DNA of 57,599 bases from a virus. Taxonomy: Duplodnaviria; Caudoviricetes. Each line of letters opens with the position of its first letter. Position 1 is the first letter of the stretch. Location: positions 1 to 57,599 of the IMG/VR virus record IMGVR_UViG_3300035136_000050; one strand, written 5' to 3'. Both the position numbers and the translations under genes were made by a program. This document shows positions 6,263 to 57,253 of the stretch, one piece after another. A model generated the notes under the pieces. It had not been told where the DNA came from. It did not search any database and saw only the letters and a list, made by a program, of their open reading frames with translations.

Positions 6263-6289
6263 GGGTACGTAAGCTGTTGTTATGTGCGC
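6263..6289 (+). other. dif/lox-like site A
   Basis: GGGTACGTAA-GCTGTTG-TTATGTGCGC. Confidence 0.8.
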
Positions 6290-6322
6290 AGACCCTAAAG
6301 GTCTAACAGACCTTTAGGGTCT
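6290..6322. repeat. Nested palindrome (REP-like)
   Basis: AGACCCTAAAGGTCT-AAC-AGACCTTTAGGGTCT; relatives at 37396, 43389, 56961, 57194. Confidence 0.85.
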
Positions 6323-6333
6323 AGGAGTGAGAG

Positions 6334-9300
6334 ATGAGGATATCGGAATTGCAGGAGATGTTAAAGCCATACGTGGTGGGGTGGATTAGCGAGGCGGGGG
6401 GCGGGGAGGGGCCGTTTGCGCCGAGTCCACACGATTTGGGGGGGGCGCATCACACGGGGAGCCTGGCGACGGCGCAGTACCCTGACGCGATTTTGAGGGA
6501 CGGGAGCCGGAGCCTGACGGGGAATTTGAGCGTGGGGAGCGGGGTGACGATAGATGGGGTGGATATTAGCGCGTTGGAGAGTGATTTTGAGGCGCACGAG
6601 CTGGCGACGGCGATGGCGGGGCATAGCGGGATTGGAGAGCACGATCACGAGGACGCGGCGGGGGGCGGGCAGCTCGACCACGGGCTGGCGCTGACGGGGC
6701 TGGGGGATGACGACCACACGCAATATTTGAACACGGCGCGGCACCTGGCGATTGGGGACGCCTCGCCGCACCACGCGGCGGCGACGGCGGGGGATGGGAT
6801 CGCGGTGACGGGGCAGCAGGTGGCGGTGGACCTGGCGACTAATTCGCTATTGGAGTTTAGCAGCGGCGGGGATTTGAGAGTGTCGGCGGCGGCGGCGGGG
6901 GATGGATTGACAGGAGGCGGGGGAGTTGCGTTGGCGGTGGACCTGCACGGGACGTGGAGCGGGTTGGAGATCAGCAGCGCGCAGTTGCGGGTGGACCAAG
7001 ACGCGGTGTTCACGTGGACGCACTTGCATACGTTCAACGCGGGGATTGACGTGGATGGAACGTTGGAATTCCAGGGTGCGGAGCAGATCACGACGACGTC
7101 GGGCAATTTGACGATTTTGCCGGTGGGGGATTTGGTATTGTCGCCGGCGGGGGAGGATGTGCGGCCCGGGACCACAGTGGGAGTGGACCTGGGAGAGTAC
7201 AATTATAAATGGCGGACGTTGTACGCGGCGGAATTGTACGTGGAGACCCTTGTTGCCCAGGATGTGATGGCCACGATTGGGGGACGGATATTGGTTGCAC
7301 CCACAACGAAATTGACGGCGGCAATGACAAATGTGCAAAATTTTATTTATGTGGAACACAATAATTTGGCGGTGGATGATTATGTGATGTTGGAGTCTGC
7401 CCCGGGGGGGGTGGCACAATTTGAGATTATGCAGATTCTAACGGATCCCTCGCCAGCCGGACCGCCATTTTTGTATACAGTGAGTCGAGATGAGGATGGG
7501 ACTGGAGCAAATACGTGGCAGAGTGGGGACGCGGTGGCGAACCTGGGGTATGCGGTGGGAGAGGGGTATTTGGAGTTGACGAGCACCTCGACGGTACACA
7601 CGGACCTGGGGCCGAACATGACGATTTATGCGAGAACGGGGACGGCGAACTGGGACGACGTGGCGGCGACGGTGGCGGTGGGGAACCTGGAGAGTTTTTT
7701 GGATTATTCAGCGGCTGAGTTTGGGGTGGCGGCAGGGGATGATTTGAGTTTGAATCCGGCGGCGGGCGGGGTTTCGGGATTTTCGATTGATCGAACGAAT
7801 GGGTTGAGGTTGTGGAACACGGGGGTGAAATTGTACGATGGGTCCGATTTGCGGATAGAGATGGACCCGACGGCGACGGGGACGGATGCGATGTTTTGGG
7901 CGGGGCCGTCATCGAGTGATAAGCGGTTTGTGGTGACTGGGGATGGGGACGTGTGGCTCTCGACGCTGGCGATTAGCGAGGGGATGGGGGAGTGGTTGTT
8001 TAGCCAGGCGGATGGGCTGTTGTTGCTGGGGCAGCCGCTGAAGGTGCTGAAAGAGGGTGGTGTCAATTACTGGGGAGGGACGAGGGGAGAGCGGGCGACG
8101 GTGAGTGGGGCGCTGCACACGGAGCAGGGGAGGTGGACGGGGAGCCGGGGAGTGGTGGTGGAGGAGGCTACGACTAATTTATGCACAAATCCCAGTTTTG
8201 AGATAGGGACGACTGGATGGGGTACAGGAGGATCAAATACAATTGCATCCTCGACGGTGTGGTCTATGCGAGGTAATCGCTCACTGAAATGCACATATCA
8301 GGATAATACTGTATTGGCGAGTGATTCGATTACAGTTCCTGCGGCAGGAGATTATACTCTGACTGCCTGGGTGTACGTGCCGCAGGATTGGGATGGTGGA
8401 ATTATATATTTATCGGATTCCGGTTTTACCGGTGCAACTAGAGAATATAGAGCGATTAGTGCGGATGTGATGGGGCAGTGGGTGAGGATAGAAACTGGCG
8501 TAACTGTAGATGCGGGCGACTTGAGTGGATCGTTTAGGGTGAATACAAATTCAGCGCCTTCAGCAGGTAAATTTATCTATGTGGACGCTGTGATGTGGGA
8601 GCAGTTGGATCATGCGACTAGCTATTGTGATGGAGACCAGGGGGATGGGTATGCCTGGAGCGGGACGGTGCATGCGAGCACGAGCGCGCGGACGGCGACC
8701 GGTGTGAATCTGGATGCGCTTGTGGGGCTGATTAGCGGAAACGATGCAATGAGTATTGTGGCGTGGGTACAGATGCCTTACGATTATGATGCCACATGGC
8801 CACATAGTACGAGTGTTTATGTAATGGATGCGTATGATGTGGCTGGACGCATCATTATGGAGTATCGAGCTGCAAACAATGTTTTCAGGGTGTTTAATGG
8901 GACAACATGGGTTGCCGCAAGCGAAATTCAATTTTCGGCGGGGGATTGGTTGTGTTTGGCATATACATTGGATTATGGCAATGATGAGTACTATTTGTAT
9001 TGTAATGGTGAATTGGTAGCATCTGATATTACTGCGGCATTGGCTGGAACGTTGTCGCAGTGGCGGCTAGGGAGCCGTTATTCGGGTAGCCAGATTGGCA
9101 ATTTTACGTTTGCAGAGTTTGCGACATTTGATCGGGTGCTCACGGCGGACGAGGTGGCGGGGATGTACGCGGGGCAGAGGCCGCTGGTGGACGGGGGGGC
9201 GATTGAGCGGCCTGGGATTTACATTCTGGATGGGGAATTCAGGTTGCAGTCGTCACAGACGGGCCAGCGGGTGGAGATGCTGCCAGAGGGGATTGGGATT

Positions 9301-9969
9301 TACGACGAGACGGGGTACACGGGGGTGGCGAGGCTGCTGGGGGGGCGGGTGGACACGACGGGGAAGACGCTGGACGCGGAAGGGGACGCGCTGGGATGGT
9401 TTGGGTATGACGGGGATGATGCTCTCCAGGTGGCGTGGTACGCGGCGGGGGACGACGCGGGGAAGATCGTGGCGGGAAGCGGGGCGCTTTGGCTGGATGA
9501 GGATGGAATTTCGATTGAGATAGGGTCCAGCAAAGCGAACGGCCGCGCCTATAAGTTTTTGGATAGCAGCGGCAACGTCGTGTCGGGGATATTTGGCTAC
9601 CTAGGGGTGCATAACGTTGTAGACATAGATGTTGAGCCAGTAGCATCTAAACAATCTGATCTGAATTTGACAGCCTCGGGAGGGTCTGGGGGATATTATG
9701 GCAGGATAGTTTTGAAGGCCGAGAGCGATGGAGATGCTGATACGGCTGAATTGGAAATTTACAGCGATGGTATATCCAGGTATGTGGATTCAAATGTGTC
9801 GATCATTTGTGATGATGATTTTCGGAGCGGGGGCGGTCTGGTCGTGGGCAACGCGAGTGTGAATCCGAATGCTGAGCAAATTCATTTTGGCTCGGCGACG
9901 TATAGGCTGAGGCGAAATGGGACGCACATCGAGTGGTACAATGGCGCTAGTTGGGTGCAGTTGGATTAG
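6334..9969 (+). CDS. Tail fibre/receptor-binding protein with CBM-like and LamG-like domains
   Basis: 1211 aa; TNLCTNPSFE CBM-type start; YLYCNGELV...FDRVLTADEV LamG-type end; mosaic base composition. Confidence 0.78.
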   Translation: MRISELQEMLKPYVVGWISEAGGGEGPFAPSPHDLGGAHHTGSLATAQYPDAILRDGSRSLTGNLSVGSGVTIDGVDISALESDFEAHELATAMAGHSGIGEHDHEDAAGGGQLDHGLALTGLGDDDHTQYLNTARHLAIGDASPHHAAATAGDGIAVTGQQVAVDLATNSLLEFSSGGDLRVSAAAAGDGLTGGGGVALAVDLHGTWSGLEISSAQLRVDQDAVFTWTHLHTFNAGIDVDGTLEFQGAEQITTTSGNLTILPVGDLVLSPAGEDVRPGTTVGVDLGEYNYKWRTLYAAELYVETLVAQDVMATIGGRILVAPTTKLTAAMTNVQNFIYVEHNNLAVDDYVMLESAPGGVAQFEIMQILTDPSPAGPPFLYTVSRDEDGTGANTWQSGDAVANLGYAVGEGYLELTSTSTVHTDLGPNMTIYARTGTANWDDVAATVAVGNLESFLDYSAAEFGVAAGDDLSLNPAAGGVSGFSIDRTNGLRLWNTGVKLYDGSDLRIEMDPTATGTDAMFWAGPSSSDKRFVVTGDGDVWLSTLAISEGMGEWLFSQADGLLLLGQPLKVLKEGGVNYWGGTRGERATVSGALHTEQGRWTGSRGVVVEEATTNLCTNPSFEIGTTGWGTGGSNTIASSTVWSMRGNRSLKCTYQDNTVLASDSITVPAAGDYTLTAWVYVPQDWDGGIIYLSDSGFTGATREYRAISADVMGQWVRIETGVTVDAGDLSGSFRVNTNSAPSAGKFIYVDAVMWEQLDHATSYCDGDQGDGYAWSGTVHASTSARTATGVNLDALVGLISGNDAMSIVAWVQMPYDYDATWPHSTSVYVMDAYDVAGRIIMEYRAANNVFRVFNGTTWVAASEIQFSAGDWLCLAYTLDYGNDEYYLYCNGELVASDITAALAGTLSQWRLGSRYSGSQIGNFTFAEFATFDRVLTADEVAGMYAGQRPLVDGGAIERPGIYILDGEFRLQSSQTGQRVEMLPEGIGIYDETGYTGVARLLGGRVDTTGKTLDAEGDALGWFGYDGDDALQVAWYAAGDDAGKIVAGSGALWLDEDGISIEIGSSKANGRAYKFLDSSGNVVSGIFGYLGVHNVVDIDVEPVASKQSDLNLTASGGSGGYYGRIVLKAESDGDADTAELEIYSDGISRYVDSNVSIICDDDFRSGGGLVVGNASVNPNAEQIHFGSATYRLRRNGTHIEWYNGASWVQLD

Positions 9970-9981
9970 CTAGGAGGAGAG

Positions 9982-10365
9982 ATGAAGGCGACGGATGTTT
10001 GCACGGAGTTGAAGGCGCTGCTGGGGGTGCGGCGGAACGAGGAGATCGCGCCGGCGGTGAGGGGTCTGTTGGATAAGCGAAAGCCGCGACAACCAACGGG
10101 GGTGTTGTTGGTGTTGGACGAGGGGACGTATTATCCAACGGTAGTGGGAATGAGGCAACCAACGTTGGGCCAGGTGGAGGCGCTCCGGGAGGCGTGTTTG
10201 CATTTTTCGGAGACGCAGTTGGGGAAGATCGGGAATGTGTTGCGGGAGAGGGAGATCGAGGCGCGGGTGCGCGCGGAGTTGAGACGAGAGGCGGGGGGCG
10301 AGGGGCGGGGGGCGAGGGGCGAGGGGCGAGGGGCGAGGGGCGAGGAACACGGGTCGGCGGAGTGA
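9982..10365 (+). CDS. Hypothetical protein
   Basis: GGAGGAG RBS, ATG; C-terminus extended by GAGGGGC heptamers. Confidence 0.65.
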   Translation: MKATDVCTELKALLGVRRNEEIAPAVRGLLDKRKPRQPTGVLLVLDEGTYYPTVVGMRQPTLGQVEALREACLHFSETQLGKIGNVLREREIEARVRAELRREAGGEGRGARGEGRGARGEEHGSAE

Positions 10366-10438: not shown

Positions 10439-10447
10439 GTTGGGGTA

Positions 10448-10474
10448 GGGCAGGTAATGGTTTGTTATGTGCGC
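10448..10474 (+). other. dif/lox-like site B
   Basis: GGGCAGGTAA-TGGTTTG-TTATGTGCGC; its TTA is the stop codon of the - strand gene ending at 10465. Confidence 0.85.
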
Positions 10475-10833
10475 TGGTATTTGATGCTCCAGCCGCAGGC
10501 TGGACACGCGGCCTGATTGGAGTATTTGTGGTCGCCAGCGGGCTGGTAGGCGGTGGCTCCACAGGTGGGACAGATGAGATCAATGATCTCATCCGTGTCG
10601 GCCAGCCACCAGGCTCCCCAGAGATGGCGTGGAATTCCGAGGATGGCCCAGGCCTTCTGGGCGTCCATTTTAAGGGCGGTACGCTGGATATCCTCAATGG
10701 GATAGAGGGTGTAGCGACCGATTTTGTATTCGGTCCATTTGTCGCGCTGAGCGATTTTACTGATTCGCTCGTTGGAAATTCCGAGGATGGCAGCGATTTC
10801 TTTGCGGGTGTAGTAGCCAGGGATTTGAGTCAT
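10465..10833 (-). CDS. HTH DNA-binding protein with C-terminal Zn ribbon
   Basis: YTRKEIAAILGISNERISKIA; CPTCG...CPACG; ATGA overlap with upstream gene. Confidence 0.7.
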   Translation of the reverse strand: MTQIPGYYTRKEIAAILGISNERISKIAQRDKWTEYKIGRYTLYPIEDIQRTALKMDAQKAWAILGIPRHLWGAWWLADTDEIIDLICPTCGATAYQPAGDHKYSNQAACPACGWSIKYQRT

Positions 10834-14948: not shown

Positions 14949-15476
14949 CTAAAGCCTGGACTCCAGGGTGGGCAGATAACTGTTTGTTATGTGAGCTGGA
15001 TGTTGGGTATTGGATATTAGGTATTCGATTTGTTGGTTGAGCCAGCGCAGTTGCTGGCCGATGCCCAGGCCCTGCATGGGGATTTCTATGGTGTAGCCCA
15101 GGGCTTGGAGCCAGCGGGCCAGGCAGGCGTGGTAGGGTTTGCCAGCCAGGATAGTGATTTGGTCCTGGAGAGTGATGTGGTGGATGAGGTCATGTAGGAC
15201 ATTGGCAGACCAGCGTCGCCGGTAGCTGCCGGACGCCTGGGCGAGGGTGAAATCGTAGGGCGCGATGATGGCGGCCGGGTCTACGAGATGGTGATGGGCG
15301 CTGAGGATGTACCAGCGGTCGGCGACTAGTTCGGCGTAGCGGCGGGCCTTTTTGAACCAGACGGATTGGTAGAGGTCGGCGGCGGGGGCGGGATGATCTA
15401 GTTTTTGGCCGACGCAGGCGACAAGGGCGATTTGCTCGGCGTATCGGACATTGATTGTGATTAGAGATTCGGTCAT
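14949..15476 (-). CDS. DUF6884-like protein
   Basis: LVACVGQK, AADLY-S-WF, WYILSA, PYD-TL, GLGIGQQLRWL pattern. Confidence 0.7.
   Translation of the reverse strand: MTESLITINVRYAEQIALVACVGQKLDHPAPAADLYQSVWFKKARRYAELVADRWYILSAHHHLVDPAAIIAPYDFTLAQASGSYRRRWSANVLHDLIHHITLQDQITILAGKPYHACLARWLQALGYTIEIPMQGLGIGQQLRWLNQQIEYLISNTQHPAHITNSYLPTLESRL
14970..14996 (+). other. dif/lox-like site C
   Basis: GGGCAGATAA-CTGTTTG-TTATGTGAGC; in the non-conserved tail of the DUF6884-like gene. Confidence 0.85.
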
Positions 15477-20094: not shown

Positions 20095-20129
20095 CGGTTT
20101 GTCCTTTGGGTATTAGGTATTGGGTATTA

Positions 20130-20156
20130 GGGCAGATAAGACGTTATTATGTGTCC
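20130..20156 (+). other. dif/lox-like site D
   Basis: GGGCAGATAA-GACGTTA-TTATGTGTCC. Confidence 0.85.
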
Positions 20157-20363
20157 TGGTTTTGAGTGTTGGGATAGGTGAGATGGATTGCTAGAAAGTC
20201 CAGGAACAATATGAGATAGGCTGGTTTTGTGTAGCCGGTCACGAATAGATAGACGGTTAGCAGACAAACCAGGGCGGTGATTAGTAGTTTTGTGTCGTCT
20301 TCGAGTAGCCATAGTAGTTTGTTCATGGTGCTCCTTAGAACGCGGAACGGCGGAATGGGCGGA

Positions 20364-23376: not shown

Positions 23377-23401
23377 TGAATGTTCTCCATTTCGGCTAAC
23401 A

Positions 23402-23474
23402 TGTTACTTGTTACTTGTTTTTTTGGGTTTTCTCGTTTTGGGGCCAAAGTGAAAAAAACAAGTAACAAGTAACA
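23402..23474. repeat. AT-rich 23-bp inverted repeat, candidate origin/terminator
   Basis: TGTTACTTGTTACTTGTTTTTTT ... AAAAAAACAAGTAACAAGTAACA. Confidence 0.75.
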
Positions 23475-23489
23475 AGTTCGATATCTTTG

Positions 23490-24755: not shown

Positions 24756-24771
24756 GATTTCTCCTGTGGCT

Positions 24772-24798
24772 GCGCATGTAATAAAGCGTTATGTGCCC
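24772..24798 (+). other. dif/lox-like site E
   Basis: GCGCATGTAA-TAAAGCG-TTATGTGCCC; its TTA is the stop codon of the ASCH gene. Confidence 0.8.
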
Positions 24799-38248: not shown

Positions 38249-38459
38249 ACGAGGTGAGGCAGGTTGGTTTGGGTGAGGCCAGAGTCGCGCAGGCGCTGGA
38301 CGTGGGCGGCGAGGTCGGGCAGGCGCATGTCGGCGTGGGCGCTGGCGGCGACGGCCAGGGCGAGAAAGGCCGCGCCGAGGGTCTCGATGCTGGCGGCGGG
38401 GGCCTCATGGCGCTCGCTGGCGAGTTCGCTTTGACTGGCGTCGCAGGCGAGGGTGCGCA

Positions 38460-38861: not shown

Positions 38862-38927
38862 TCCGGTGGCCTATATTGGGCTGATACCGCTGCTCGTTGC
38901 GATTATCAGGGCGTTGAGGTAGGGAAA

Positions 38928-41971: not shown

Positions 41972-42003
41972 GGAGTAGGGGAGTAGGGAGTAGGGGAGTA
42001 GGA

Positions 42004-43167: not shown

Positions 43168-43293
43168 CGGATATTAGGTATTGGGTATTCTAGCCCGCTG
43201 GGTGCTGGGTTGGGATCGGGTACACCCCCCGGGTGTCCCCCCCGGGATCCCCCCCACCCTATCCCGCTCAGCACCGAGGGGGTTAGAACGGGG

Positions 43294-43327
43294 TGTTTGC
43301 GCGCAAACGTCGCGCGGCGTGCAAACA
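43294..43327. promoter_or_regulatory. parS-like palindrome plus half site
   Basis: Near-identical to 28120-28153. Confidence 0.55.
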
Positions 43328-43361
43328 TTAGAACGCAGAGCGGCGGAATGGGCGGATTTCA

Positions 43362-43388
43362 GGGCACATAATAGGGCATTATGTGAGC
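43362..43388 (+). other. dif/lox-like site J
   Basis: GGGCACATAA-TAGGGCA-TTATGTGAGC; followed by nested palindrome 43389-43420. Confidence 0.87.
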
Positions 43389-43437
43389 AGACCCTAAAGG
43401 TCTGACAGACCTTTAGGGTCGAGAGCAGGAGGGCAGG

Positions 43438-46086: not shown

Positions 46087-46192
46087 TTTTACAAGCGCGG
46101 GGGCGGGGTGGCCTCGCCCCCTGTTGTTCCTTCCTTCGGCAAGCTCAGGATGAGACGCGGAGGGGCAGGACGGATTTTTGGGAGGTAGGAAG

Positions 46193-46867
46193 GTGAAATC
46201 GAAAATCAGGTTGTTGACGACGGTGGTTTTGAGCGCGATGCTGGCGCTGGTGTTGATCGGGGCGCTGGTGGCGTCGTCGCCGACGGCGAGGGCAGAGCCG
46301 GGAGCGCCGGAGCCGGGGACGGTGGCCGGGATACGGACGTTCGAGTTTTATCCGGCGACATACGTCAGTGGGGCGAGTGGGACGGCGTATTCGTCCAGTC
46401 CTCGATATTACTATGGCCAAGACATGACCTATTCGAGGAATTGGCACAGCGCGGACGTGTTTGTGACGGCGGACGTGAGCGGAACGGCCGCGGTTACGGT
46501 GACGGCGCAGTATAGCCCGGACGCGACGAACTGGACGGACGCAGAGTTTTTAAGCGAGGGCTGGGTGTTGCCGTTGACATACGAATCTACTGTCACGAAC
46601 ACCGCGACTATAACGAATAGCAGCGGGGTCACGAGTACGACGACGTCCACCTCGACGATGACGACGACGGCGACGCATTCGTTCAGCGGCTCGACGGCGA
46701 CGAGGTCCAGCGAGTGGGTGAAATACCAGACAAATCTTTCGACTGACGCCACAGAGTTTTTCCGGCTGCCTTTGGCCGGGGAGTACATGCGGTTCAAGAT
46801 CGAGTACGCGGCCAGTGTGACCGAGGGTGTTACTGTCACCATCAAGTCCACGTTGCGCAACGATTAG
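46193..46867 (+). CDS. Signal-peptide protein with Thr/Ser-rich insert
   Basis: Hydrophobic leader ending ARA; beta-rich body. Confidence 0.65.
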   Translation: MKSKIRLLTTVVLSAMLALVLIGALVASSPTARAEPGAPEPGTVAGIRTFEFYPATYVSGASGTAYSSSPRYYYGQDMTYSRNWHSADVFVTADVSGTAAVTVTAQYSPDATNWTDAEFLSEGWVLPLTYESTVTNTATITNSSGVTSTTTSTSTMTTTATHSFSGSTATRSSEWVKYQTNLSTDATEFFRLPLAGEYMRFKIEYAASVTEGVTVTIKSTLRND

Positions 46868-46948
46868 ACGAGCGGCGAGTCAGCGAGTCAGCGAATTGGC
46901 GAGGGGGGCGGGGTCTCCCCTCGCTTGTGGATATAGACGGAGGACGAT

Positions 46949-47278
46949 ATGGTTACGGTGACGTACATTGGAGAGAATCCGTTGCCGGTTTTTGGCCGGT
47001 TGATGCTGCCGGGGGAGCGGCGGGAGTTGAATCCGAAGCAGGCGGCCTGGCTGGACGAGGAATACCCGGGGCGGTTCGAGTTTGCTGTGGATGGCGAGGT
47101 ATTTGTTCAGGCGGTTCCTGACACGTCTGTGGACATAGACGCAACGGACGCGGCGACGCGGCTGGCTCAGGTTGCGGGGATAAAACTGGCCGACGTGGCG
47201 GCGGGGCTAGAGCCGGGAAAGCGCGTGGGGAAGCCGGACGTGGATACGTTTTTGAGGGAACACGGATTGGCGGAATGA
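46949..47278 (+). CDS. Small protein with E3-binding (PSBD)-like domain
   Basis: ATDAATRLAQVAGIKLADV...GKRVGKPDV. Confidence 0.6.
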   Translation: MVTVTYIGENPLPVFGRLMLPGERRELNPKQAAWLDEEYPGRFEFAVDGEVFVQAVPDTSVDIDATDAATRLAQVAGIKLADVAAGLEPGKRVGKPDVDTFLREHGLAE

Positions 47279-47285
47279 ACGGATA

Positions 47286-47312
47286 GGGCACGTAAGCGAT
47301 TATTATGTGATC
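47286..47312 (+). other. dif/lox-like site K
   Basis: GGGCACGTAA-GCGATTA-TTATGTGATC. Confidence 0.85.
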
Positions 47313-47326
47313 TGTGGAGAGTGCGT

Positions 47327-47590
47327 ATGGCAACATTAGCAGATGCAGATCGTTTGGCCATCTGGGCGGACGTGATGAGGGACCTCAGCCGGTCTCATAT
47401 AGAGATTCCTATCAATAACGTGGATTTGCGCTCGTTGATCAATTTCATGGACGTGCAGTTGGAGAGCGCCGAGACCAGTATTTTTACCGCGTTGCCGGCA
47501 GGCGAGGGCAAGGCCTGGTTGCTGGCGCATCCTGAACTGGGGCGGGAGTTGTTGGCGCGGATTGAGCGCAAACGACGGGAGACGTTGTAA
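47327..47590 (+). CDS. Hypothetical protein
   Basis: GGAG RBS; coupled to next gene. Confidence 0.6.
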   Translation: MATLADADRLAIWADVMRDLSRSHIEIPINNVDLRSLINFMDVQLESAETSIFTALPAGEGKAWLLAHPELGRELLARIERKRRETL

Positions 47591-48096
47591 TGGCCAGCGG
47601 CGATGCAGTGGTGCAGGTTCTGGAGATCATACCGCCTGGCGCGAACGGGGCGTTGTTCGATTTCCGCGTGGGCGGCAGCACGCCACCGGAGGCGGTGCCA
47701 GTTTATGATTTTCCGGCCAACGCGTATGCGTATCTGGATTTCAAATGCAGGTTGAGCGGGTACGATGGCAATGGATTAACGCTGGCTACGCCGTGGTCGG
47801 CGTCATCGGCAACGAGTGGACAGGTGCGCTGGGGAGCCGCTATCAGACGTATAGCTGATGACGCGGAGGATATTGATAATTCTCACACATACGATTACAA
47901 CGAGGTGAGCGACACTGCGCCGAGCGCCAGCGGCGAGGTGAGTTATCCAACGATTACGTTTGCGGATGGCGTGGACATGGACAATTGGGATGATGGGGAG
48001 CTGGCTATTGTGCGCGTGTACAGGCATTATGACCACGCAGACGATAACATGAGCGGGGACGCCGAGTTGTGGAATCTGAGTGGAATTGAGAGCTGA
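47590..48096 (+). CDS. Hypothetical beta-rich virion protein
   Basis: Coupled; structural region. Confidence 0.6.
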   Translation: MASGDAVVQVLEIIPPGANGALFDFRVGGSTPPEAVPVYDFPANAYAYLDFKCRLSGYDGNGLTLATPWSASSATSGQVRWGAAIRRIADDAEDIDNSHTYDYNEVSDTAPSASGEVSYPTITFADGVDMDNWDDGELAIVRVYRHYDHADDNMSGDAELWNLSGIES

Positions 48097-49880
48097 TGGC
48101 GCGGTTGTTTGACGACGCATCGAATGAGTATTTGCGAATAGCAGCATCGCCAGTGGCGGCAGAGCCGTTTGCGGTGGCAGCCTGGGTCAGGCCGGACGAT
48201 GCAGCACCAGATCAGCAGACAATCCTATCTATTGGCCATGCAATAGGATCCAGGTATTTTTGCTCGGCGTTGGATGGAGCTAGTGGTAAATTGGTTGCAT
48301 TGGCATACGATGGAGACGCCAGTTCGCTGGCAGTAACATCTACGTCGTTTGCGATTAATACCTGGCAGCACACAGTAGCTATTTTTGCGGACAACGGAGA
48401 CATCAGAGTATTACTAGATAATGCAGGCAGGGGGATCAACACTGATGTACATTCATCTATGACGAGTAATGCTGTTGCGATTGGTGTGTCTGCGGACAAC
48501 ACGCCATACGGATATATGTCGGGGAGAATTGCAGAGGCCGCCATATACGACCTGAGCCAGTTGCCAGGAGCGACTAATGGAGATAAAGCGGATGAGTTTG
48601 AGCGCATTGTTTTGCCGGCGTTGGCGGCGGGGTACTCACCGTTATTTTTTCGATTGGGATTGGTGGCATATTGGCCACTGGTGCGCGATAGAGACCTGGA
48701 TTGGGTTGGTGGTCATCACTTAACAGCATACAACACTCCTAATGTAGCCGAACATCTGCGGATTATTTATCCGCGTCCGAGGGCGACAATTATGTGGCCA
48801 TCGGGTCTGACACTGGTGCATGTGATTGGGGAGACGGCGCAGGCGGCAGAGAGCACAGGACGAACGCGAACATTGGCGCGATTACTGACTGAGAGTGTTC
48901 AAGAAAGCGAGAGCGCGGCCCGGATACGGACGCTGGCCCGGCTGGTGGCTGAGGCCGTCCAGGGGAGCGAGGGCGTGCTCAGGCCCCGGACGTTGGCCCG
49001 GCTCATTGGCGAGACGGCTCAAATTGGGGAAAGCCCCTCGCGGCTGAGGGGCCTGCTCAGAGCAATCGGCGAGACGGTCCAGATTGGGGAGAGCATAGCT
49101 AGAATCCGGGGATTGATGCGAGCGGCCAGCGAGACGGTGCAGGCGTCGGAGAGCGTGGCCAGGTTGATGGCGATGACGCGGACCATCGGCGAGACGGTGC
49201 AGGGTAGTGAGGGTGTGGTCCGGATACGGGCGCTGGCCCGGCTGATCTCGGAGAGCATCCAGATCAGCGAGGGCGCGGCGAGGGCCAGGGCGCTGGCCAG
49301 GGCGATTGGCGAGACGGTGCAGGCCGGGGAAGTGGGCGCTCGATTGAAGGGGATGGTGAGGGCAGTTGGCGAGACCATCCAGATTGGGGAGAGCTTGGCG
49401 CAGGTCCGGGGCCTGGTGCGAGCGGCCAGCGAGACGGTGCAATCCTCGGAGAGCGCAGCGAGGCTGATGGCGATGACGCGGACCATCGGCGAGACGGTGC
49501 AGGGTAGTGAGGGTGTGGCCCGGATACGGGCGCTGGCTCGGCTGATCTCGGAGAGCATCCAGATCAGCGAGGGCGTGGCGAGGGCCAGGGCGCTGGCCAG
49601 GGCGATTGGCGAGACGGTGCAGGCCGGGGAAGTGGGCGCTCGATTGATGGGGATGGTGAGGGCGATTGGCGAGACCATCCAGATTGGGGAGAGCGTGGCC
49701 CAGGTCCGGGGACTGGTGCGCGTGGTTGGGGAGATGGTGCAGGTGGTGGGAGGCGTGATCCGGGCGCTGGCCGTGATAGTAGCAGCAGTGCGGCGGGTGG
49801 TGGTGGAAAGCGAGAGCCGGCTGTTGAGCGTGAAGGGGGGCAGGATGGTGGTGGTAGATGAGGAAGATAGGACGATTTAG
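48096..49880 (+). CDS. LamG-like domain plus 20-aa repeat stalk (fibre/decoration)
   Basis: AWVRPD, WQH, GRIAEAAIY, LVAYWPL; about 16 repeats of IGETVQxxE...RL. Confidence 0.78.
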   Translation: MARLFDDASNEYLRIAASPVAAEPFAVAAWVRPDDAAPDQQTILSIGHAIGSRYFCSALDGASGKLVALAYDGDASSLAVTSTSFAINTWQHTVAIFADNGDIRVLLDNAGRGINTDVHSSMTSNAVAIGVSADNTPYGYMSGRIAEAAIYDLSQLPGATNGDKADEFERIVLPALAAGYSPLFFRLGLVAYWPLVRDRDLDWVGGHHLTAYNTPNVAEHLRIIYPRPRATIMWPSGLTLVHVIGETAQAAESTGRTRTLARLLTESVQESESAARIRTLARLVAEAVQGSEGVLRPRTLARLIGETAQIGESPSRLRGLLRAIGETVQIGESIARIRGLMRAASETVQASESVARLMAMTRTIGETVQGSEGVVRIRALARLISESIQISEGAARARALARAIGETVQAGEVGARLKGMVRAVGETIQIGESLAQVRGLVRAASETVQSSESAARLMAMTRTIGETVQGSEGVARIRALARLISESIQISEGVARARALARAIGETVQAGEVGARLMGMVRAIGETIQIGESVAQVRGLVRVVGEMVQVVGGVIRALAVIVAAVRRVVVESESRLLSVKGGRMVVVDEEDRTI

Positions 49881-50057
49881 GCGCGTCGTAGGTCGAATGA
49901 TAATCTGGATAGCATTGTTGATGTCCAGCCGATCAATCAGGCGGATGGCGCGGGCGAAATTGGGACCGGACGCCACGGTAGACACAGCAGAGCAGGTGGT
50001 GGCGGTTTTGAGCAGGAATGGAAACGGGGCGCAGCCCTATAAAAGGAGGGTTATTAG

Positions 50058-50666
50058 ATGAACTTTTTACGACTGAAATCGGATGCAGTGGCGCGCTATA
50101 AGGCGCGGTGGGGCCAGTATTGGATGGACAGGCTGGTGGAGGAAATTCAGCGGCGGCACCGCGACCAGGTGGCGGTGACGGGGACGGTGCTGGCGGTGTT
50201 GCGCGAGCCGAGACTGGGGTTGGAGTTGTGTGTCCCAGGGCTGAACATCGTGACGAACGACGGGGATACGTATTACGCGCAGAGCGCGGCCGGGGAGTCT
50301 GTGGACGACGATTTTGATGGGGCCAGCTCGGGCCTGCGACTGGGGGATGATAACACCAGCCCGACCAAAACAGACACGGACGTGACCTCGTTTTTGGCAA
50401 CATCAGGTCACGCCCTCGACGGTGGATATGAAAAAACGGACGACGACGACAGCGACAATACTGGGGCGGGGGTAGATGTAGTTACGTGGCGGTACTCGTA
50501 TTTGACGAGCGAGGGCAACGTAGCCGACATCATCGAGGGGGCGGTGGTGGACGACCGCACGACTCCCACGGCGGCGTTGACGCATTTCCTGTTTGCGGCG
50601 ACGTTCAGCAAAACGAGTTCGGACACGCTCAAGGTTTTTGTGAATCACACGATGAACGGGGTATAG
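50058..50666 (+). CDS. Virion-associated protein
   Basis: AGGAGG RBS; NIVTNDG...KTSSDTLKV. Confidence 0.6.
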   Translation: MNFLRLKSDAVARYKARWGQYWMDRLVEEIQRRHRDQVAVTGTVLAVLREPRLGLELCVPGLNIVTNDGDTYYAQSAAGESVDDDFDGASSGLRLGDDNTSPTKTDTDVTSFLATSGHALDGGYEKTDDDDSDNTGAGVDVVTWRYSYLTSEGNVADIIEGAVVDDRTTPTAALTHFLFAATFSKTSSDTLKVFVNHTMNGV

Positions 50667-50667
50667 C

Positions 50668-50934
50668 GTGGACACATTTTACAAGGACCCGAACGCTAAC
50701 CTGGATTACCAGATTGACTGGTCTTCGTGGCTGGGGAGCGACACGATCAGCAGCAGCGCGTGGACGGTGCAGAGCGGGCTGACGAAAGGGTCCGACTCGA
50801 AAACCGACACGACGACGACGGTGTGGTTGAGCGGGGGGACGGCGGGGCAGACGTACCGGGTGACGAACCGGGTGGTCACGGCGGGGGGACGGACGGATGA
50901 TCGTTCGTTCTGGGTGGTGGTGGAGGAAAAGTAG
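50668..50934 (+). CDS. Small fibre-adaptor-like protein
   Basis: KDPNANLDYQIDWSSWL...VWLSGG-AG-TY-VTN. Confidence 0.65.
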   Translation: MDTFYKDPNANLDYQIDWSSWLGSDTISSSAWTVQSGLTKGSDSKTDTTTTVWLSGGTAGQTYRVTNRVVTAGGRTDDRSFWVVVEEK

Positions 50935-50983
50935 GGCTGCGTGTTACGTGCTGCGTGTTACGTGCTGCGTGGTGCGTTTGGCA

Positions 50984-51010
50984 GGGCATATAATAGGGAG
51001 TTATGTGTGC
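50984..51010 (+). other. dif/lox-like site L
   Basis: GGGCATATAA-TAGGGAG-TTATGTGTGC. Confidence 0.85.
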
Positions 51011-51050
51011 TGGCTTTGAGAGCAGGATTTTCGGAATAGGCGGATAGATT

Positions 51051-51704
51051 ATGAGTGTTAGCCTGGCGGACCTGGTGGCGCGGCTGGAGGAGGATGTGCC
51101 AGCGCGGAATAGCGTGCCGACGGATCGGCAGTACCAGCGGTGCGTGAAGGATGCGGCGGCGGATTATAGCCGGCGGCGGTCGTTGCGGAAGCTGACGACG
51201 TTGAGCGTGGTTCGTGGGACGGCGGAATACGAGTTGCCGGACGATTTCCTGAAGGTGCTGTTGCTGGAGTCGTTGTCGTCACCGGATGGGGTGCTGGTGT
51301 CGGCGGCGGGGCTGATCCCGCTGGATGCGACGTATAAAGAGCGGTTTTACGTCGTGGGGACGACGCTGACGCTGGACCCGACGCCGACGTACACGCTGGA
51401 CCGGGATTTGTGGTATGCGGCGGGGTACGTGTTGGACGCTGACAGCGTGTACCAGGATATGGGCGAGGCCGAGGCGGGGGTGGTGTTGTTGAAAGCGGCG
51501 GCGCTGGCGCTGACGAGGCAGGCGAACAAGGCGGCGCAGGAGGCCTGGCAGTACGCGGTGGGGGATGAGCGGGTGAACAAGGAGCGGCTGGCGGAGGCGC
51601 TGCGCAAGCAGGCAGAGGCGAGCGAGGCGCAGTATTTGCGCGAGACGGCGGCGGAGACGGGGCCGGTGGGGATGAGGGCGCGGTATGACGCGCTGGGGTA
51701 TTGA
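51051..51704 (+). CDS. Probable head-tail adaptor
   Basis: G-AEYELPDDF motif; synteny. Confidence 0.6.
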   Translation: MSVSLADLVARLEEDVPARNSVPTDRQYQRCVKDAAADYSRRRSLRKLTTLSVVRGTAEYELPDDFLKVLLLESLSSPDGVLVSAAGLIPLDATYKERFYVVGTTLTLDPTPTYTLDRDLWYAAGYVLDADSVYQDMGEAEAGVVLLKAAALALTRQANKAAQEAWQYAVGDERVNKERLAEALRKQAEASEAQYLRETAAETGPVGMRARYDALGY

Positions 51705-51733
51705 GTAATACGTAAAGCGTAAAGGAGGGCGAC

Positions 51734-52195
51734 GTGAATAATCCGATTGGAGAGGGGGGGCTGACTGAACTCATTGGGGTGGATGAGCAGGTTGCTCAGA
51801 ACAAGTTTGGGGGGAGCGTGGGGGTAACGCTGGACGCGACGTTGAAACGGTCGGGGGAGATCGTGAGCCTGGCGTTGTATAGCACGGGCGGGGGAATTTT
51901 GACGCCGGCGGGGAAGCTGCTAGTGCTGGACGCGGACCCGGCCGTGGCGGTGGGCGACGCGGCGCTGGCGGCGGCGGAATGGGCGACTGTGTTGGGCGTG
52001 GTGGCGGTGGCGGCGGGGGACTGGGTGGCGGACGCGGCGGGGGCGGCCGTGTTCAAGGCGGACGTGGGGCTGGCGTTTCACGCGGTGCAGTCGTTGTATT
52101 TCGTGTGGCTGCACCAGGACGCGACGACGTTTAATAGCGACGCGGGGGATGATGAGTTGTTGCAACTCAATTTTTGGTACCGTAGGGATAGTTAG
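51734..52195 (+). CDS. Hypothetical virion protein
   Basis: AAGGAGG RBS. Confidence 0.55.
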   Translation: MNNPIGEGGLTELIGVDEQVAQNKFGGSVGVTLDATLKRSGEIVSLALYSTGGGILTPAGKLLVLDADPAVAVGDAALAAAEWATVLGVVAVAAGDWVADAAGAAVFKADVGLAFHAVQSLYFVWLHQDATTFNSDAGDDELLQLNFWYRRDS

Positions 52196-52256
52196 TTTTT
52201 TGGAAGCCGCATCGGGGATGCTCACTCCGCTTTAAGAGAAATAAGGAGTAGGGAGT

Positions 52257-52586
52257 ATGGGGTTGATTGGGAGCGATGATTTGGCGCAGATGGCGGCGGA
52301 TTTGGCCGAGGTGCGCGGCGATAATGAGGTGAGTGTGATCATCCGGCGAGGGGGGAGCACGCTGGCGGCGCAGAGCGTGCGCGTGGCGCGGACGGGGGGG
52401 CAGGGGATGGAGCGGGATAGCGAGGGAGCGCAGCAGGCGACGGGGCGGGTGGTGGTGCTGGGGGCGACGACGCTGGACATAGAAGCCCAGGATAGGTTTA
52501 GCGTGGCGGGAGTGTTGTACGAGGTGGTGCTGGTGCGGCCGAATAGGACGGCGGCGACGGTGGCCGAGGCGCGGTTGGTAGAATAG
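52257..52586 (+). CDS. Probable head-closure protein
   Basis: LDIEAQDRF-V-G-YEV pattern; synteny. Confidence 0.6.
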   Translation: MGLIGSDDLAQMAADLAEVRGDNEVSVIIRRGGSTLAAQSVRVARTGGQGMERDSEGAQQATGRVVVLGATTLDIEAQDRFSVAGVLYEVVLVRPNRTAATVAEARLVE

Positions 52587-52612
52587 GTATTGGATATTAG
52601 GTATTGGGGATT

Positions 52613-52963
52613 ATGAGTGTTCGATGGGTCAGGCCGCCGAGTGAATTGGAGAAAGCAATTGAGCAATACGCGGATAGGGTGCTGACGGCGGTCACGGCTG
52701 TTGCTGAGTATTCGGCGACGACGATGCAGAACGAGGCGCGGCGGAACGCGAGGTGGACGGATAGGACGGGGAACGCGCGCGGCGGGTTGTTTGGGTTGGC
52801 GGTTCGAGATGGGAAAGTGATCAAGATTGTGTTGGGACACACTATGTATTATGGATTGTATCTCGAAACGAGCTATGGGCAAAAATACGCGATCATCATG
52901 ACGACGATTGAGGCGCATTTGCCGGAGTTGGAGCGGATGTTGCGGGATTTGTTGAGTGGGTGA
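52613..52963 (+). CDS. HK97 gp10-like neck protein
   Basis: NARWTDRTGNAR...YGLYLE...KYAII. Confidence 0.75.
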   Translation: MSVRWVRPPSELEKAIEQYADRVLTAVTAVAEYSATTMQNEARRNARWTDRTGNARGGLFGLAVRDGKVIKIVLGHTMYYGLYLETSYGQKYAIIMTTIEAHLPELERMLRDLLSG

Positions 52964-53085
52964 GTCGTTGGGTGGGCGGGCGCTCCCGCTGGGGAGTGGG
53001 GAGCGCCCGCCCACCGAGGGGCTGACTCATTGCAGGCGGGCGGCGTTGAGGTCGGCGAGGTTTTTGATGAGGACGGCCAGGAGCA

Positions 53086-53112
53086 GGGCAGGTAATCACC
53101 TATTATGTGTCC
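53086..53112 (+). other. dif/lox-like site M
   Basis: GGGCAGGTAA-TCACCTA-TTATGTGTCC. Confidence 0.85.
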
Positions 53113-53176
53113 TGGCTTTCGACAGGCTCAGGATGAGAGCAGGATTTTCGGAATGGGCGGATGAGGGGATAGGGGA

Positions 53177-56914: not shown

Positions 56915-56943
56915 TGTTTGCGCGCAACGTTTGCGTGCAAACA
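56915..56943. promoter_or_regulatory. Overlapping parS-like palindromes
   Basis: TGTTTGCGCGCAACGTTTGCGTGCAAACA. Confidence 0.55.
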
Positions 56944-57005
56944 TTATCAGCCGGAGAGCCGGACCCTTGAGGTCTATCAGACCTCAAGGGTCTAGGAGTG
57001 TAGCG

Positions 57006-57203
57006 ATGACGAGGATCAGGTACGTTGGCGGGGAGAGGCAGGCCGAGGTGCTGGTGCATACCAAGGGGCAGGGGTGGAGGGTGTACCAGTGGAATGCGGG
57101 GAATGGGTTTGTGGTGGACGTGGACGATGAGGAACTGGTGATGGAGTTTTTGGAAGAGCCGGATCAGTTTGCGCGAGCGGACGCGCCATTTATAGACCCT
57201 TGA
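57006..57203 (+). CDS. Small protein flanked by nested palindromes
   Basis: AGGAG RBS; RIRYVG start resembles ORF 55205. Confidence 0.6.
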   Translation: MTRIRYVGGERQAEVLVHTKGQGWRVYQWNAGNGFVVDVDDEELVMEFLEEPDQFARADAPFIDP

Positions 57204-57226
57204 GGTCTGGGAGACCTCAAGGGTCT

Positions 57227-57253
57227 GCTCATATAACCTGTTGTTATGTGTAC
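57227..57253 (+). other. dif/lox-like site N
   Basis: GCTCATATAA-CCTGTTG-TTATGTGTAC. Confidence 0.8.

Follow-up and report, generated by a model that had tools for sequence, protein, structure and literature searches.

Introduction

On the Acinetobacter plasmids that carry pdif (dif) modules, many Xer-type sites with a variable short spacer lie on one replicon, where they flank gene modules that vary among relatives; in the excerpted accounts drawn on here, these sites have a 6-bp spacer and distinct XerC and XerD arms, are plasmid-borne and are thought to use the host XerCD. Chromosomal dif has two inverted arms, a short centre and conserved palindromic inner positions (excerpt of PMC3025954). 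Serving dimer resolution by XerCD or by a single Xer, dif occurs once per replicon, at the terminus, and is 28 bp long with a centre of 6 bp.

Temperate phages also carry repeated elements. In Cluster A mycobacteriophages, dozens of copies of a short motif, the stoperators, lie in intergenic gaps genome-wide (24 in L5 and 34 in Bxb1); as the excerpt of PMC3029335 describes them, they are 13 bp long and asymmetric, follow the direction of transcription and are recognised by an HTH repressor that acts as a monomer, and the motif tracks the repressor and varies between related phages. In SPbeta-like phages, a repressor with a tyrosine-recombinase fold, MrpR/SroF, binds the repeated element SPBRE at distant places in the phage genome; it has lost its catalytic residues and acts as a monomer on a 15-26-bp box, at about 10 promoter sites in 134 kb (excerpts of PMC10516654 and bioRxiv 2025.11.27.690993). 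The modular theory proposes short conserved intergenic sequences as targets of exchange between phages, and the excerpt of PMC3233612 presents such boundary sequences as evident in only some phages, with an unclear mechanism.

Here we analyse a lattice of sites in a temperate phage; the window is the whole stretch of 57,599 nt. Like pdif sites, the lattice sites are numerous on one replicon and mark the edges of gene modules that vary from relative to relative, but they are near-palindromic, have a 7-bp spacer, are spread evenly over a whole phage genome with some inside genes, and are accompanied by an adjoining gene for a phage-encoded Xer-like enzyme; alternation of site orientation is not seen in the window. 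Whereas dif is present once per replicon, the lattice comprises 13-20 sites per 55-kb genome. Unlike stoperators, the lattice sites are dyads of 30-31 bp whose spacer is free, and they show no tie to the direction of transcription; they are also regularly spaced, a feature that the excerpt of PMC3029335 does not mention for stoperators. Unlike SPBRE boxes, they are dyads that lie inside operons, in a phage whose two recombinases both keep their catalytic residues. Compared with the boundary sequences of the modular theory, they have the anatomy of recombinase sites, regular spacing, and a half-site shared with the integrase region.

Results

A preliminary description of this DNA listed 13 inverted-repeat sites, and the coordinates and spacers of all of them were verified in the window. 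The full register of each site is 31 bp (from 2 bp before the start first listed to 28 bp after it), made up of a 12-bp arm, a 7-bp spacer and a second 12-bp arm; the arms are near-palindromic, and usually one is strong and the other weak. On the plus strand, the sites lie at 6261-6291 (spacer GCTGTTG), separating a tail gene (4458-6239) from the gene for a 1211-aa fibre (6334-9969); at 10446-10476 (TGGTTTG), where plus-strand tail genes meet minus-strand genes; at 14968-14998 (CTGTTTG), in the gap between an FtsK-like gene and the next minus-strand gene; at 20128-20158 (GACGTTA), downstream of dnaB (20364-21830, minus strand); at 24770-24800 (TAAAGCG), 17 bp upstream of an AAA_25 helicase/primase-like gene (23490-24755, minus strand); at 29835-29865 (TTGGTTA), downstream of a 382-aa integrase gene; at 33838-33868 (GTGATTA), 135 bp left of the attP core; at 43360-43390 (TAGGGCA), upstream of a protease-capsid fusion gene; at 47284-47314 (GCGATTA); at 50982-51012 (TAGGGAG); at 53084-53114 (TCACCTA), upstream of a glycosyltransferase gene; and at 57225-57255 (CCTGTTG), upstream of the tape-measure gene. 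The remaining site (38963-38993) falls where the large terminase ORF begins; the inversion first ascribed to it is ambiguous, as either orientation fits with one mismatch.

The core RTAA-N7-TTATBT gives 20 strand-matches in the window, where 0.05 are expected (100 shuffles). These are the 13 sites, some of them matched on both strands, and one further match at 2862-2878, part of a fourteenth, degenerate site (2856-2886, plus strand) within the tape-measure gene; of its two arms only the left is perfect, the right being weak. A half-site weight matrix found three lone half-sites around the start of a XerA-like recombinase gene, at 34165 and 34186 (plus strand) and 34605 (minus strand; half-site 34607-34618, inside that gene). 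The earlier likening of the sites to tyrosine-recombinase cores is borne out by their geometry and by their co-occurrence with this recombinase. We take the inner arm letters, ATAA/TTAT, to be those of the dif consensus.

The sites fall at or near gene ends, as first described. On a heuristic ORF map, by which 14.4% of the genome is intergenic, 8 of the 13 are wholly outside called ORFs, 2 are partly outside, and 3 lie in the first or last codons of an ORF. In operons of both the early and the late regions they occupy the tight space that separates a stop codon from the following ribosome-binding site, and their orientation is independent of the direction of transcription. True hairpin repeats of other kinds adjoin some of them.

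The intervals first reported between the sites are correct for a circle of about 57446 bp, obtained by joining the record at its terminal overlap (a 96% match of 3-153 to 57449-57599). The spacing of the 13 sites has a mean of 4419 bp and a coefficient of variation (CV) of 0.219, far more even than chance: a CV this low was reached in none of 1,000,000 uniform random placements, none of 300,000 placements on intergenic bases and none of 100,000 placements of one site per gap. With the fourteenth site counted, the longest gap (6482 bp) becomes two, of 3076 bp and 3406 bp.

Four related uncultured phages (G006, G008, G010 and G014) carry evenly spaced dyads of their own, with arm letters that differ from those of the window and spacers of 6 or 7 bp; the lattice is a family trait. 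G008 has 17 sites (CV 0.28; 0 of 500,000 random placements as even), G006 has 20 (CV 0.42, P=5e-5), G010 has 13 hand-picked from a longer list as N7 dyads with at most one left-arm mismatch (CV 0.33, P=1e-4), and G014 has 11, against 1 for a reversed-motif control (CV 0.52, P=0.03). More widely, 27 of 80 loci with the conserved HTH protein hold at least three TAA-N6-TTA or TAA-N7-TTA, with a median of at most 1 at other spacer lengths, and the arms are visibly alike in most of the 22 loci inspected. The window's HTH protein (240 aa; 37526-38248, plus strand) belongs to no named family and is probably the small terminase; besides the recombinase, it is the sole protein common to all 10 related genomes compared.

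The largest gap is similarly capped, at 5160 bp in the window phage (counting the fourteenth site), 5043 bp in G008 and 4391 bp in G006. Site positions drift between G006 and G008 while density stays; for the genes that these two phages share, none of the five sites in or beside them holds the same position in both. Because positions are not conserved between these phages, and because some sites lie within long genes (2856 in the window, 30845 in G006 and 11730 in G008), the data point to selection on spacing itself.

The attP core (34005-34048, plus strand) reproduces a host tRNA-Val(CAC) without a mismatch over the stretch between its anticodon loop and its 3' end, and at this core contigs of three runs branch into the 5' half of a tRNA. 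To its right lie two direct half-sites of the lattice, TTATGTGTCCTG and TTATGTGACCTG (34165-34197, plus strand; starts 21 bp apart), preceded by an A-run and 26 nt upstream of the start codon of a 313-aa XerA/XerC-like tyrosine recombinase (34224-35165, plus strand). By its position, this recombinase is the integrase for the tRNA site; its best solved match is XerA (E=1e-27). A second tyrosine recombinase of 382 aa (30076-31224, minus strand) adjoins the gene for an XRE-family HTH protein, a candidate immunity repressor (31623-32099, plus strand); a homologue of this second recombinase is present in G008 and absent from G006. The catalytic residues of both recombinases align and are retained.

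The XerA-like recombinase has an orthologue, at 38-51% identity, in all 5 lattice genomes, and orthologues also occur in the lattice-free relatives G007, G013, G015 and G016. In each of G006, G008, G010 and G014, a lattice half-site recurs just upstream of the integrase gene, beside a tRNA-type attP, and across the five phages this motif covaries with that of the lattice: TTATGTG.. in the window, TTATCRG.. in G006 and G008, a dyad of its own type in G010, and TTGTSGGACG direct repeats in G014. For its own crossover core the integrase uses the tRNA anticodon stem-loop; the arm of this core, CCGTGAGGTC, is unlike that of the lattice, and the core is unchanged across phages with differing lattice motifs. 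A segment of the core-binding domain, SKKTVLNYH.GLSALWTW, is nearly identical in the window, G006, G008, G010 and G007, while the outer arms differ.

The preliminary description proposed checking whether identity breakpoints fall in the sites, and between close relatives homology breakpoints do tend to fall at them. Four pairwise comparisons, which cover two phage groups only and three of which share loci, gave 17 internal ends of homology; for 12 of these, one or both genomes have a site or half-site no more than 15 bp away, and for 10 of the 12 no more than 5 bp away. Only 1.8-2.9% of bases per locus lie this close. By our reading of the alignments these represent about six distinct events. 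Since the sites fill most of the short gaps that hold them, the fair null is the gene junction and not the base; against it we roughly estimate P at around 1e-3 to 1e-4. Gene gains and losses between close relatives also start or stop at sites. Among the window's own samples, run X2 has variant contigs that diverge from the window sequence at the outer edges of two sites (43358 and 47284). A single contig joins site edges (47285 to 51018), where no hybrid site is kept and the joint rests on 22 repeat letters. A contig from run X1 covers 34005-49194, including three sites, without a difference.

All 13 spacers do differ, as first noted, but this is expected by chance (P=0.995 for 13 random heptamers). 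Their proposed role as barcodes is not supported in the relatives: between loci L126 and L127 (79% identical overall, with an alignment continuous through three sites), the 6-letter spacers of homologous sites show 1, 2 and at least 4 differences, and between G006 and G008 the positions themselves are not conserved. We therefore reject designed barcodes, given chance uniqueness and unlike spacers at homologous sites.

Discussion

We tentatively favour the explanation that the sites are recombinase-type and act as preferred exchange joints, while granting it somewhat less than an even chance. The sites would be dyad binding sites of the recombinase core type, with 12-bp arms around a free spacer of 6-7 bp and a TAA|spacer|TTA centre. 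Their recogniser may be a phage-encoded protein of the integration module, the XerA-like recombinase being the first candidate. Kept at roughly equal distances genome-wide, sites bound by a recombinase would serve as preferred joints for exchange between related phages; either the enzyme would make at least the first strand exchange, or the conserved arms would act as short homology. Exchange tracts would thus get one fixed end at a site, even spacing would distribute exchange points over all gene blocks, and differing spacers might merely stop sites in the same genome from recombining with each other. In favour of this explanation stand the geometry and over-representation of the sites, their regular spacing here and in relatives, the wider set of loci with such dyads, the covariation of the motif near the integrase with the lattice motif, the recombinase orthologue in every lattice genome, arm complementarity that does not exceed that of independent arms, the sites inside genes, and the breakpoints and variant-contig departures at sites. 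We count several observations against it: a tRNA crossover core that is unlike the lattice arms and constant across lattice motifs, the near-constant core-binding segment despite differing outer arms, the recombinase orthologues in lattice-free genomes, the asymmetry of strong and weak arms, the X1 contig unbroken across three sites, the weakness of the 47285/51018 joint, the one-piece alignment of L126 and L127, and the small number of comparisons.

The main rival, which we consider possible but doubtful, is a genome-wide operator array in which an immunity or regulatory protein binds the sites, represses the integrase promoter and silences or blocks prophage transcription; on this view, breakpoints would coincide with sites as a side effect of having short conserved sequences where genes meet. 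Cluster A stoperators and SPBRE are precedents, and, like immunity specificities, the arm letters vary from one related phage to another. The likely integrase promoter is overlain by half-sites in the window, G006, G008 and G009 (a dyad in G010, direct repeats in G014), a motif for which evenly spaced sites of an organising or silencing protein, the alternative in the preliminary description, account equally well; the position of sites between stop codon and ribosome-binding site, in operons both early and late, also fits, as does the presence of XRE homologues near the integrase in 6 of 10 related genomes. However, no candidate repressor was detected in all five lattice genomes; at the thresholds used, XRE proteins were found in three of them (the window, G008 and G010) and were not found in G006 and G014, and the XRE recognition helices of G008, G009 and G013 differ while the half-sites are alike. 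Site orientation is unrelated to transcription, both recombinases keep the catalytic residues that MrpR/SroF lack, and silencing offers no obvious reason for even spacing, in-gene sites or breakpoints.

It is improbable, in our judgement, that the sites load or anchor a machine of limited reach, such as a looping protein, a sliding clamp, or an enzyme that modifies DNA processively or translocates along it. Full genome coverage would then need one site every few kilobases, consistent with the even spacing and capped largest gap, with sites built in long genes that lack intergenic DNA, and with a density kept while positions drift; the window phage encodes a ParB-like HTH protein and two FtsK/HerA-like ATPases. 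Yet of the 5 lattice genomes only G006 has a ParB N-terminal domain, which recurs in just one (G009) of the five other relatives; the lattice genomes have no other candidate machine in common, and both the half-sites at the integrase promoter and the breakpoints are left unexplained.

That these inverted repeats in intergenic DNA, some beside true hairpin repeats, form RNA or single-stranded DNA hairpins (terminators, processing or priming signals) or are copies of a small mobile or host repeat is very unlikely: they are protein sites, not hairpins, because the arms lack base-pairing covariation, with complementarity no higher than for independent arms (109 of 156 positions in the window against 112.9 expected, 120 of 240 in G006 against 145, and 123 of 204 in G008 against 131), there is no consistent T-run 3' of the sites and no Rfam family in the window, all spacers differ and the sites are therefore not copies of one element, and the exact motif is multi-copy in no other record (viral contigs gave 24 and 15 single matches, metagenome contigs 9 stretches, and 185,579 species genomes 2 single matches, with no BLAST match of the window to the 11 metagenome and genome stretches).

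If the sites are indeed exchange joints, DNA swaps bounded by them would bear on the origin of mosaicism in phage genomes.

Results

Anatomy of the sites

The lattice, 13 evenly spaced dyad sites along the window, was recovered in full: 13/13 of the sites are present at the positions, and with the spacers, that the preliminary description had claimed for them. Each is 31 bp long and consists of a 12-bp arm (CAGGGCAnRTAA), seven free bases and a second 12-bp arm (TTATGTGnnCTG); the 7-bp spacer and the 12-bp arms hold in 13/13. The two arms are versions of a single half-site, TTAT(G)TG(CC)CTG, and the core, RTAA-N7-TTATBT, has 20 matches on both strands of the window compared with 0.05 expected from shuffles. 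Judged by their letters, the sites have the geometry of a tyrosine-recombinase core, with inverted arms of about 11-13 bp and a centre of 6-8 bp. One of the core matches is new and marks a fourteenth, degenerate site within the tape-measure gene (2856-2886), whose left arm is perfect and whose right arm is weak. A half-site weight matrix trained on the 26 arms of the window also found lone half-sites, a direct pair at 34165 and 34186 and another on the opposite strand at 34605.

Given that the spacers all differ and that the likeness between sites ends at their arms, the arms are the conserved part, and we rejected the idea that the sites are copies of one element. The arms are complementary at 109 of 156 positions, compared with 112.9 expected for independent arms (permutation P=0.95), so the sites look like dyad protein sites rather than hairpins; arm complementarity is below expectation in G006 and G008, two related phage genomes with lattices of their own.

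Twelve of the 13 sites have the same orientation. The site at 38965, previously described as inverted, is present, but its orientation is ambiguous, either way fitting with one mismatch. The palindrome is broken at positions where the + strand would carry C. From end to end of the genome, and independent of gene direction, this strand has 40% G and 21% C; at third codon positions, G reaches about 60% in + strand genes and C about 65% in - strand genes. The asymmetry suggests a one-directional process acting genome-wide, e.g. replication or single-strandedness of one strand; L033, a related virus locus, is skewed to the same degree as the window (0.43 in L033). We infer that the uniform orientation of the sites is a by-product of G-rich mutational bias, and it is probably without function.

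Spacing and placement

The ends of the 57599-bp virus record repeat each other (3-153 and 57449-57599, 96% identical), which closes the genome into a circle of about 57446 bp, a length that fits the last interval of the preliminary description. The record, labelled linear and 55% complete, is probably complete and either circular or terminally redundant. It encodes tail genes, a GpA-type large terminase and a protease-capsid fusion; DnaB, a DnaC-like loader, a helicase/primase-like ATPase and a methyltransferase; a ParB-like HTH protein and two FtsK/HerA-like ATPases; and two tyrosine recombinases and an XRE regulator.

The 13 intervals have a mean of 4419 bp and a CV of 0.219, or 0.20 when the fourteenth site, which lies in the middle of the longest site-free stretch, is counted. 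The observed CV was reached by 0/1,000,000 uniform placements, by 0/300,000 placements on intergenic bases and by 0/100,000 placements of one site per intergenic gap, with genes called heuristically from the longest ORFs and wobble G/C bias. Two long homologous gene blocks are common to G006 and G008, and 0/5 of the sites in or beside these blocks are co-positioned. The G006 site at 30845 lies in frame within a helicase gene, where the G008 counterpart is ordinary coding sequence, and the G008 site at 11730 lies within a 3.2-kb primase gene. Because positions are not shared and sites occur within long genes, we read the pattern as selection that would favour one site every few kilobases, such that spacing is kept and position is not.

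The spacers themselves proved less informative. Their uniqueness had been taken for a barcode, a claim that does not survive since 13 random heptamers would all differ with P=0.995; for random hexamers the chance is P=0.955 with 20 and P=0.967 with 17. Nor are spacers conserved by position, a point that had been proposed as a check: at three homologous sites of L126 and L127, related loci that are 79% identical, they differ at 1, 2 and at least 4 of 6 bases and are conserved no better than the flanks.

Lattices in related phages

Scans of viral contigs, metagenome contigs and species genomes for the exact motif of the window returned no other multi-copy record and only unrelated single matches, so this motif is not comparable across genomes. 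The possibility that it is an abundant host repeat is not borne out either, with two single matches among 185,579 species, each species represented by one genome, in a scan whose pattern covers 6/13 of the window's sites and whose genome set may lack the phage host.

Relatives were reached through the XerA-like recombinase (G006 and G008) or through a conserved 240-aa HTH protein (G010, G014 and the loci counted below). G006 (54.5 kb) has 20 dyads of the form TAGAACCGATAA-N6-TTAYCRG.. (CV 0.42, P=5e-5; N6 in 19/20), and G008 (59.2 kb) has 17 (N6 in 16/17), with a CV of 0.28 that was reached by 0/500,000 random placements; in both, the strong arm is on the left or the right with no strict alternation. 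Among the HTH-protein loci, 27/80 have at least three TAA-N6-TTA or TAA-N7-TTA and at most one at other spacer lengths. In most of the 22 inspected, the arms are alike within a locus and different between loci. G010 has 13 N7 dyads, hand-selected from a match list (CV 0.33, P=1e-4), and G014 has 11 (N7 in 11/11) with the centre CAA-N7-TTG, compared with 1 for a reversed-motif control.

A regular lattice was not found in G001, G002, G007, G013, G015 or G016; a comparable dyad family is absent from two of these, the terminase relatives G001 and G002, of about 57 kb. The dyads of G009 are irregular only. They read AACnnCCGTTAA-N6-TTAACGGnnGTT and stand in pairs 85-86 bp apart (9137/9222, 26767/26853 and 45256/45342), and this genome encodes three tyrosine recombinases. 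L033, the closest terminase relative (73% identity, also G-rich), carries in the corresponding position an inverted repeat of another kind, 11-7-11, and a scan for this repeat returned its own record and one unrelated match only. The lattice is a family trait of a group of uncultured temperate phages. The relatives are metagenomic records, and the look-alikes of DnaB, considered as a host pointer, come from mixed phyla.

Half-sites at the attachment site and integrase gene

In three runs from the window's own wetland samples, two of DNA and one of RNA, contigs branch at 34005, where the alternative sequence to the left is a 5' tRNA half, anticodon CAC. This shared branch places the attP core at 34005-34048, identical to the 3' part of a tRNA-Val gene, and the phage is temperate. 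One RNA-run contig joins the host tRNA 5' half to phage sequence from 34005 and a second spans 34112-34473; thus that sample's RNA library contained both the prophage junction and the beginning of the integrase gene.

The gene for a 313-aa recombinase begins 176 bp beyond the attP core. Its best solved relative is XerA (E=1e-27), with which the catalytic residues align. The gene lies 350 bp from one lattice site, and a full site sits 135 bp from the attP core on the side away from the integrase. In the window, G006, G008 and G009, two direct half-sites, spaced 21 bp from start to start, are preceded by an A-run and stop about 25-30 nt upstream of the integrase start codon. At this position there is a dyad in G010, while G014 carries its own TTGTSGGACG motif as direct repeats. 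The letters upstream of the integrase are those of the genome's own lattice in the window, G006, G008, G010 and G014; in G009 the dyad letters differ from the integrase-upstream half-sites, and G015 has neither such half-sites nor a lattice. Since the lattice letters recur upstream of the integrase, one candidate protein of fast-changing specificity would serve both the attP/integrase promoter region and the lattice. There is no lattice site where the divergent XRE gene meets its neighbour (31622/31623), the nearest being at 29835 and 33838.

Homology breakpoints between relatives

The preliminary description had named in advance a comparison of homology breakpoints with the sites, and the outcome was positive. 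Twelve of 17 internal homology ends lie within 15 bp of a site or half-site, and ten within 5 bp, in at least one genome of the pair, where bases within 15 bp of a site or half-site make up 1.8-2.9% of each locus; the comparisons overlap, leaving about six distinct events, a small sample. As sites fill their short gaps, a fairer comparison is with the fraction of gene junctions that carry a site, possibly one in five, and even so the coincidence is unlikely, at a rough estimate of P ~1e-3 to 1e-4. Each distinct event has one edge at a site and the other elsewhere.

Between L121 and L122 (97% identical), both structural differences are small genes found only in L122, one directly right of the site at 2464 and the other directly left of that at 8721, with the junction within the arm; identity falls on the inner side of both sites. 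In the G014 group (L108, L110 and L112), the starting points of replaced segments are within the right arm of the site at 7837, at the site near 6830/10902/15528 and on a lone half-site. Across their three sites, L126 and L127 are structurally unbroken.

Within the window's own samples, variant contigs diverge where two sites have their outer edges, at 43358 and 47284, and a contig of X1, one of the three sequencing runs, continues unbroken through three sites. No hybrid site was found at contig joints among the assembled contigs of the three runs over 33001-53000, a range in which the RNA contigs of X3 leave parts uncovered. A joint of 47285 to 51018 in X1 and X2 was rejected as a site-to-site product: 15 foreign letters stand between its sides, and the short side is 22 matching letters within a repeat family. 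We take it to be another strain or a repeat.

Candidate binding proteins

The recombinase family and the 240-aa HTH protein alone are common to all ten related genomes compared. The recombinase is present in 5/5 lattice genomes, half-sites flank its gene and attP, and the site geometry, together with the centre TAA-N(6-7)-TTA, would favour it as the candidate binder. Counting against it, its crossover core in the tRNA, with the arm CCGTGAGGTC, is unlike the lattice arms and constant in phages of differing lattice letters, and its core-binding domain is nearly invariant. The XerA-like recombinase of the window has no extra arm-binding domain.

The other candidates were set aside. The 240-aa HTH protein also occurs in genomes without a lattice; its gene directly precedes terL whichever terL type the genome has, the HTH shows fair conservation, and it is a probable small terminase, with weak fold matches to such proteins (best E 0.33 in PDB and 1e-3 in BFVD). 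An XRE regulator lies near the integrase in 6/10 genomes, and its recognition helices do not track the motif classes, a comparison of six genomes only that is not decisive. A ParB clamp is disfavoured by the presence of the ParB N-domain in only 1/5 lattice genomes. A role of the second recombinase as a dead repressor does not fit, since its catalytic residues are retained and G006 has one recombinase only; in both recombinases of the window, the Arg, Lys, His-x-x-Arg, His and Tyr positions align with Xer proteins.

Other repeats of the window

Runs of a 7-base unit, TTGGGTA/TTGGATA (family D2), occur in at least 13 places, all on the + strand and near gene ends (10363, 14987, 17865, 18442, 19349, 20090, 21676, 25058, 43144, 52567, 57244 and others), and several adjoin lattice sites. 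A second family, ..CGGATTGGCGGAATGGGCGGAT (D7, D11, D20), stands directly before or after genes on the + strand (13120, 15693, 17174, 17246, 20326, 25514, 28090, 31258, 43319, 47255, 51017 and 53134), four copies being beside lattice sites. Runs of GGGGCGA units (family D3) lie at the 3' ends of + strand genes (10274-10363, 38159-38206 and 42311-42358).

A strong 14-3-14 hairpin, GACCCTAAAGGTCT..AGACCTTTAGGGTC and a variant, occurs at 6291-6322, 37395-37426, 43389-43420, 56962-56994 and 57195-57225, adjoining three lattice sites. The same hairpin has different flanks in many other contigs of the metagenome and therefore may be a repeat that belongs to the host or to other phages. In the 113-bp gap between the DnaC-like and helicase/primase-like genes, an inverted repeat of 27 nt that is rich in AT (23398-23478) could be a replication origin or a two-way terminator. 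Inverted repeats of about seven C, a few bases and seven G lie at - strand gene junctions (22559-22590, 26058-26090 and 28358-28390), and C-runs are unusual on this G-rich strand. The gene for the 594-aa LamG fibre contains three tandem 300-nt repeats (48891-49790), the latter two 75% and 67% identical to the first; contigs over 49165-49494 have about three to four times the neighbouring depth and variant letters.

Discussion

We tentatively interpret the lattice sites as recombinase-type dyads at which exchanges preferentially join, which is quite possible but short of probable. The events are one-sided, fixed at a site at one end and free at the other, and would arise by a first strand exchange followed by branch migration; alternatively, the conserved arms may act as short homology. 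Different spacers would keep the sites within one genome from recombining together, which fits the data and is indistinguishable from chance. The fuller scheme of a phage-encoded crossover lattice, in which an Xer-like recombinase would start exchange, relatives would swap blocks and mismatched spacers would prevent self-deletion, is one that we consider fairly unlikely; here the partners would be co-infecting or resident relatives and the sites would set the block borders.

The main rival, a genome-wide operator array like stoperators (PMC3029335) or SPBRE with MrpR/SroF (PMC10516654, bioRxiv 2025.11.27.690993), is somewhat unlikely. It accounts for the half-sites at the promoter and for motif turnover but leaves the even spacing, the sites within genes and the breakpoints unexplained. 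Like stoperators, the lattice repeats one motif many times over in short intergenic regions along the prophage. Stoperators, however, are asymmetric and oriented with transcription, whereas the sites of the window keep one orientation over the - block (12-31 kb) and the + blocks, and neither G006 nor G008 shows a link to the direction of transcription. The stoperator motif is the operator of the immunity repressor; in the window, half-sites overlie the integrase promoter region, and a role for a repressor is putative. MrpR/SroF, which binds SPBRE, has a recombinase fold without catalytic residues, while the recombinases of the window retain them. Site tables for stoperators and SPBRE might bear on the regularity of spacing in those systems. 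The operator array and the exchange joints are not exclusive, and both can hold.

Loading sites, which would explain the spacing and only that, are an improbable alternative. Hairpin elements (terminator, REP or attC-like) or repeats are highly improbable, the arms in the window, G006 and G008 having no complementarity beyond each arm's own consensus.

Returning to exchange joints, the nearest known systems, as represented in the portions of the sources available, are pdif modules of Acinetobacter plasmids, stoperators, SPBRE with MrpR/SroF and the boundary sequences of modular theory. Sites of pdif have distinct XerC and XerD arms in alternating orientation, whereas the window has near-palindromic arms and 12/13 sites one way; the pdif centre is 6 bp, unlike the 7 bp of the window (13/13), and G006 and G008 mostly have 6 bp, like pdif. 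In those same portions, none of these systems appears to combine recombinase-site anatomy, coverage of a whole phage, even spacing kept through turnover and a half-site shared with attP. The openly available full texts searched held no prior description of evenly spaced recombinase-type sites in phage genomes.

How phage genomes come to be mosaics joined at gene borders is a long-standing question. According to one model, exchange takes place at short conserved boundary sequences, found in few phages (PMC3233612). Lattice phages carry boundary sequences with the anatomy of recombinase sites, their spacing is apparently held by selection, and breakpoints between close relatives coincide with them, so that the question becomes testable with a defined site and a defined candidate enzyme. 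If the crossover lattice is true, it would parallel, in nature, engineered multi-site recombinase shuffling and would supply a concrete mechanism for the boundary-sequence model of phage mosaicism. If the lattice is instead a silencing array, it would still be a new form of genome-wide operator, one in which the distance between sites is conserved rather than their position.
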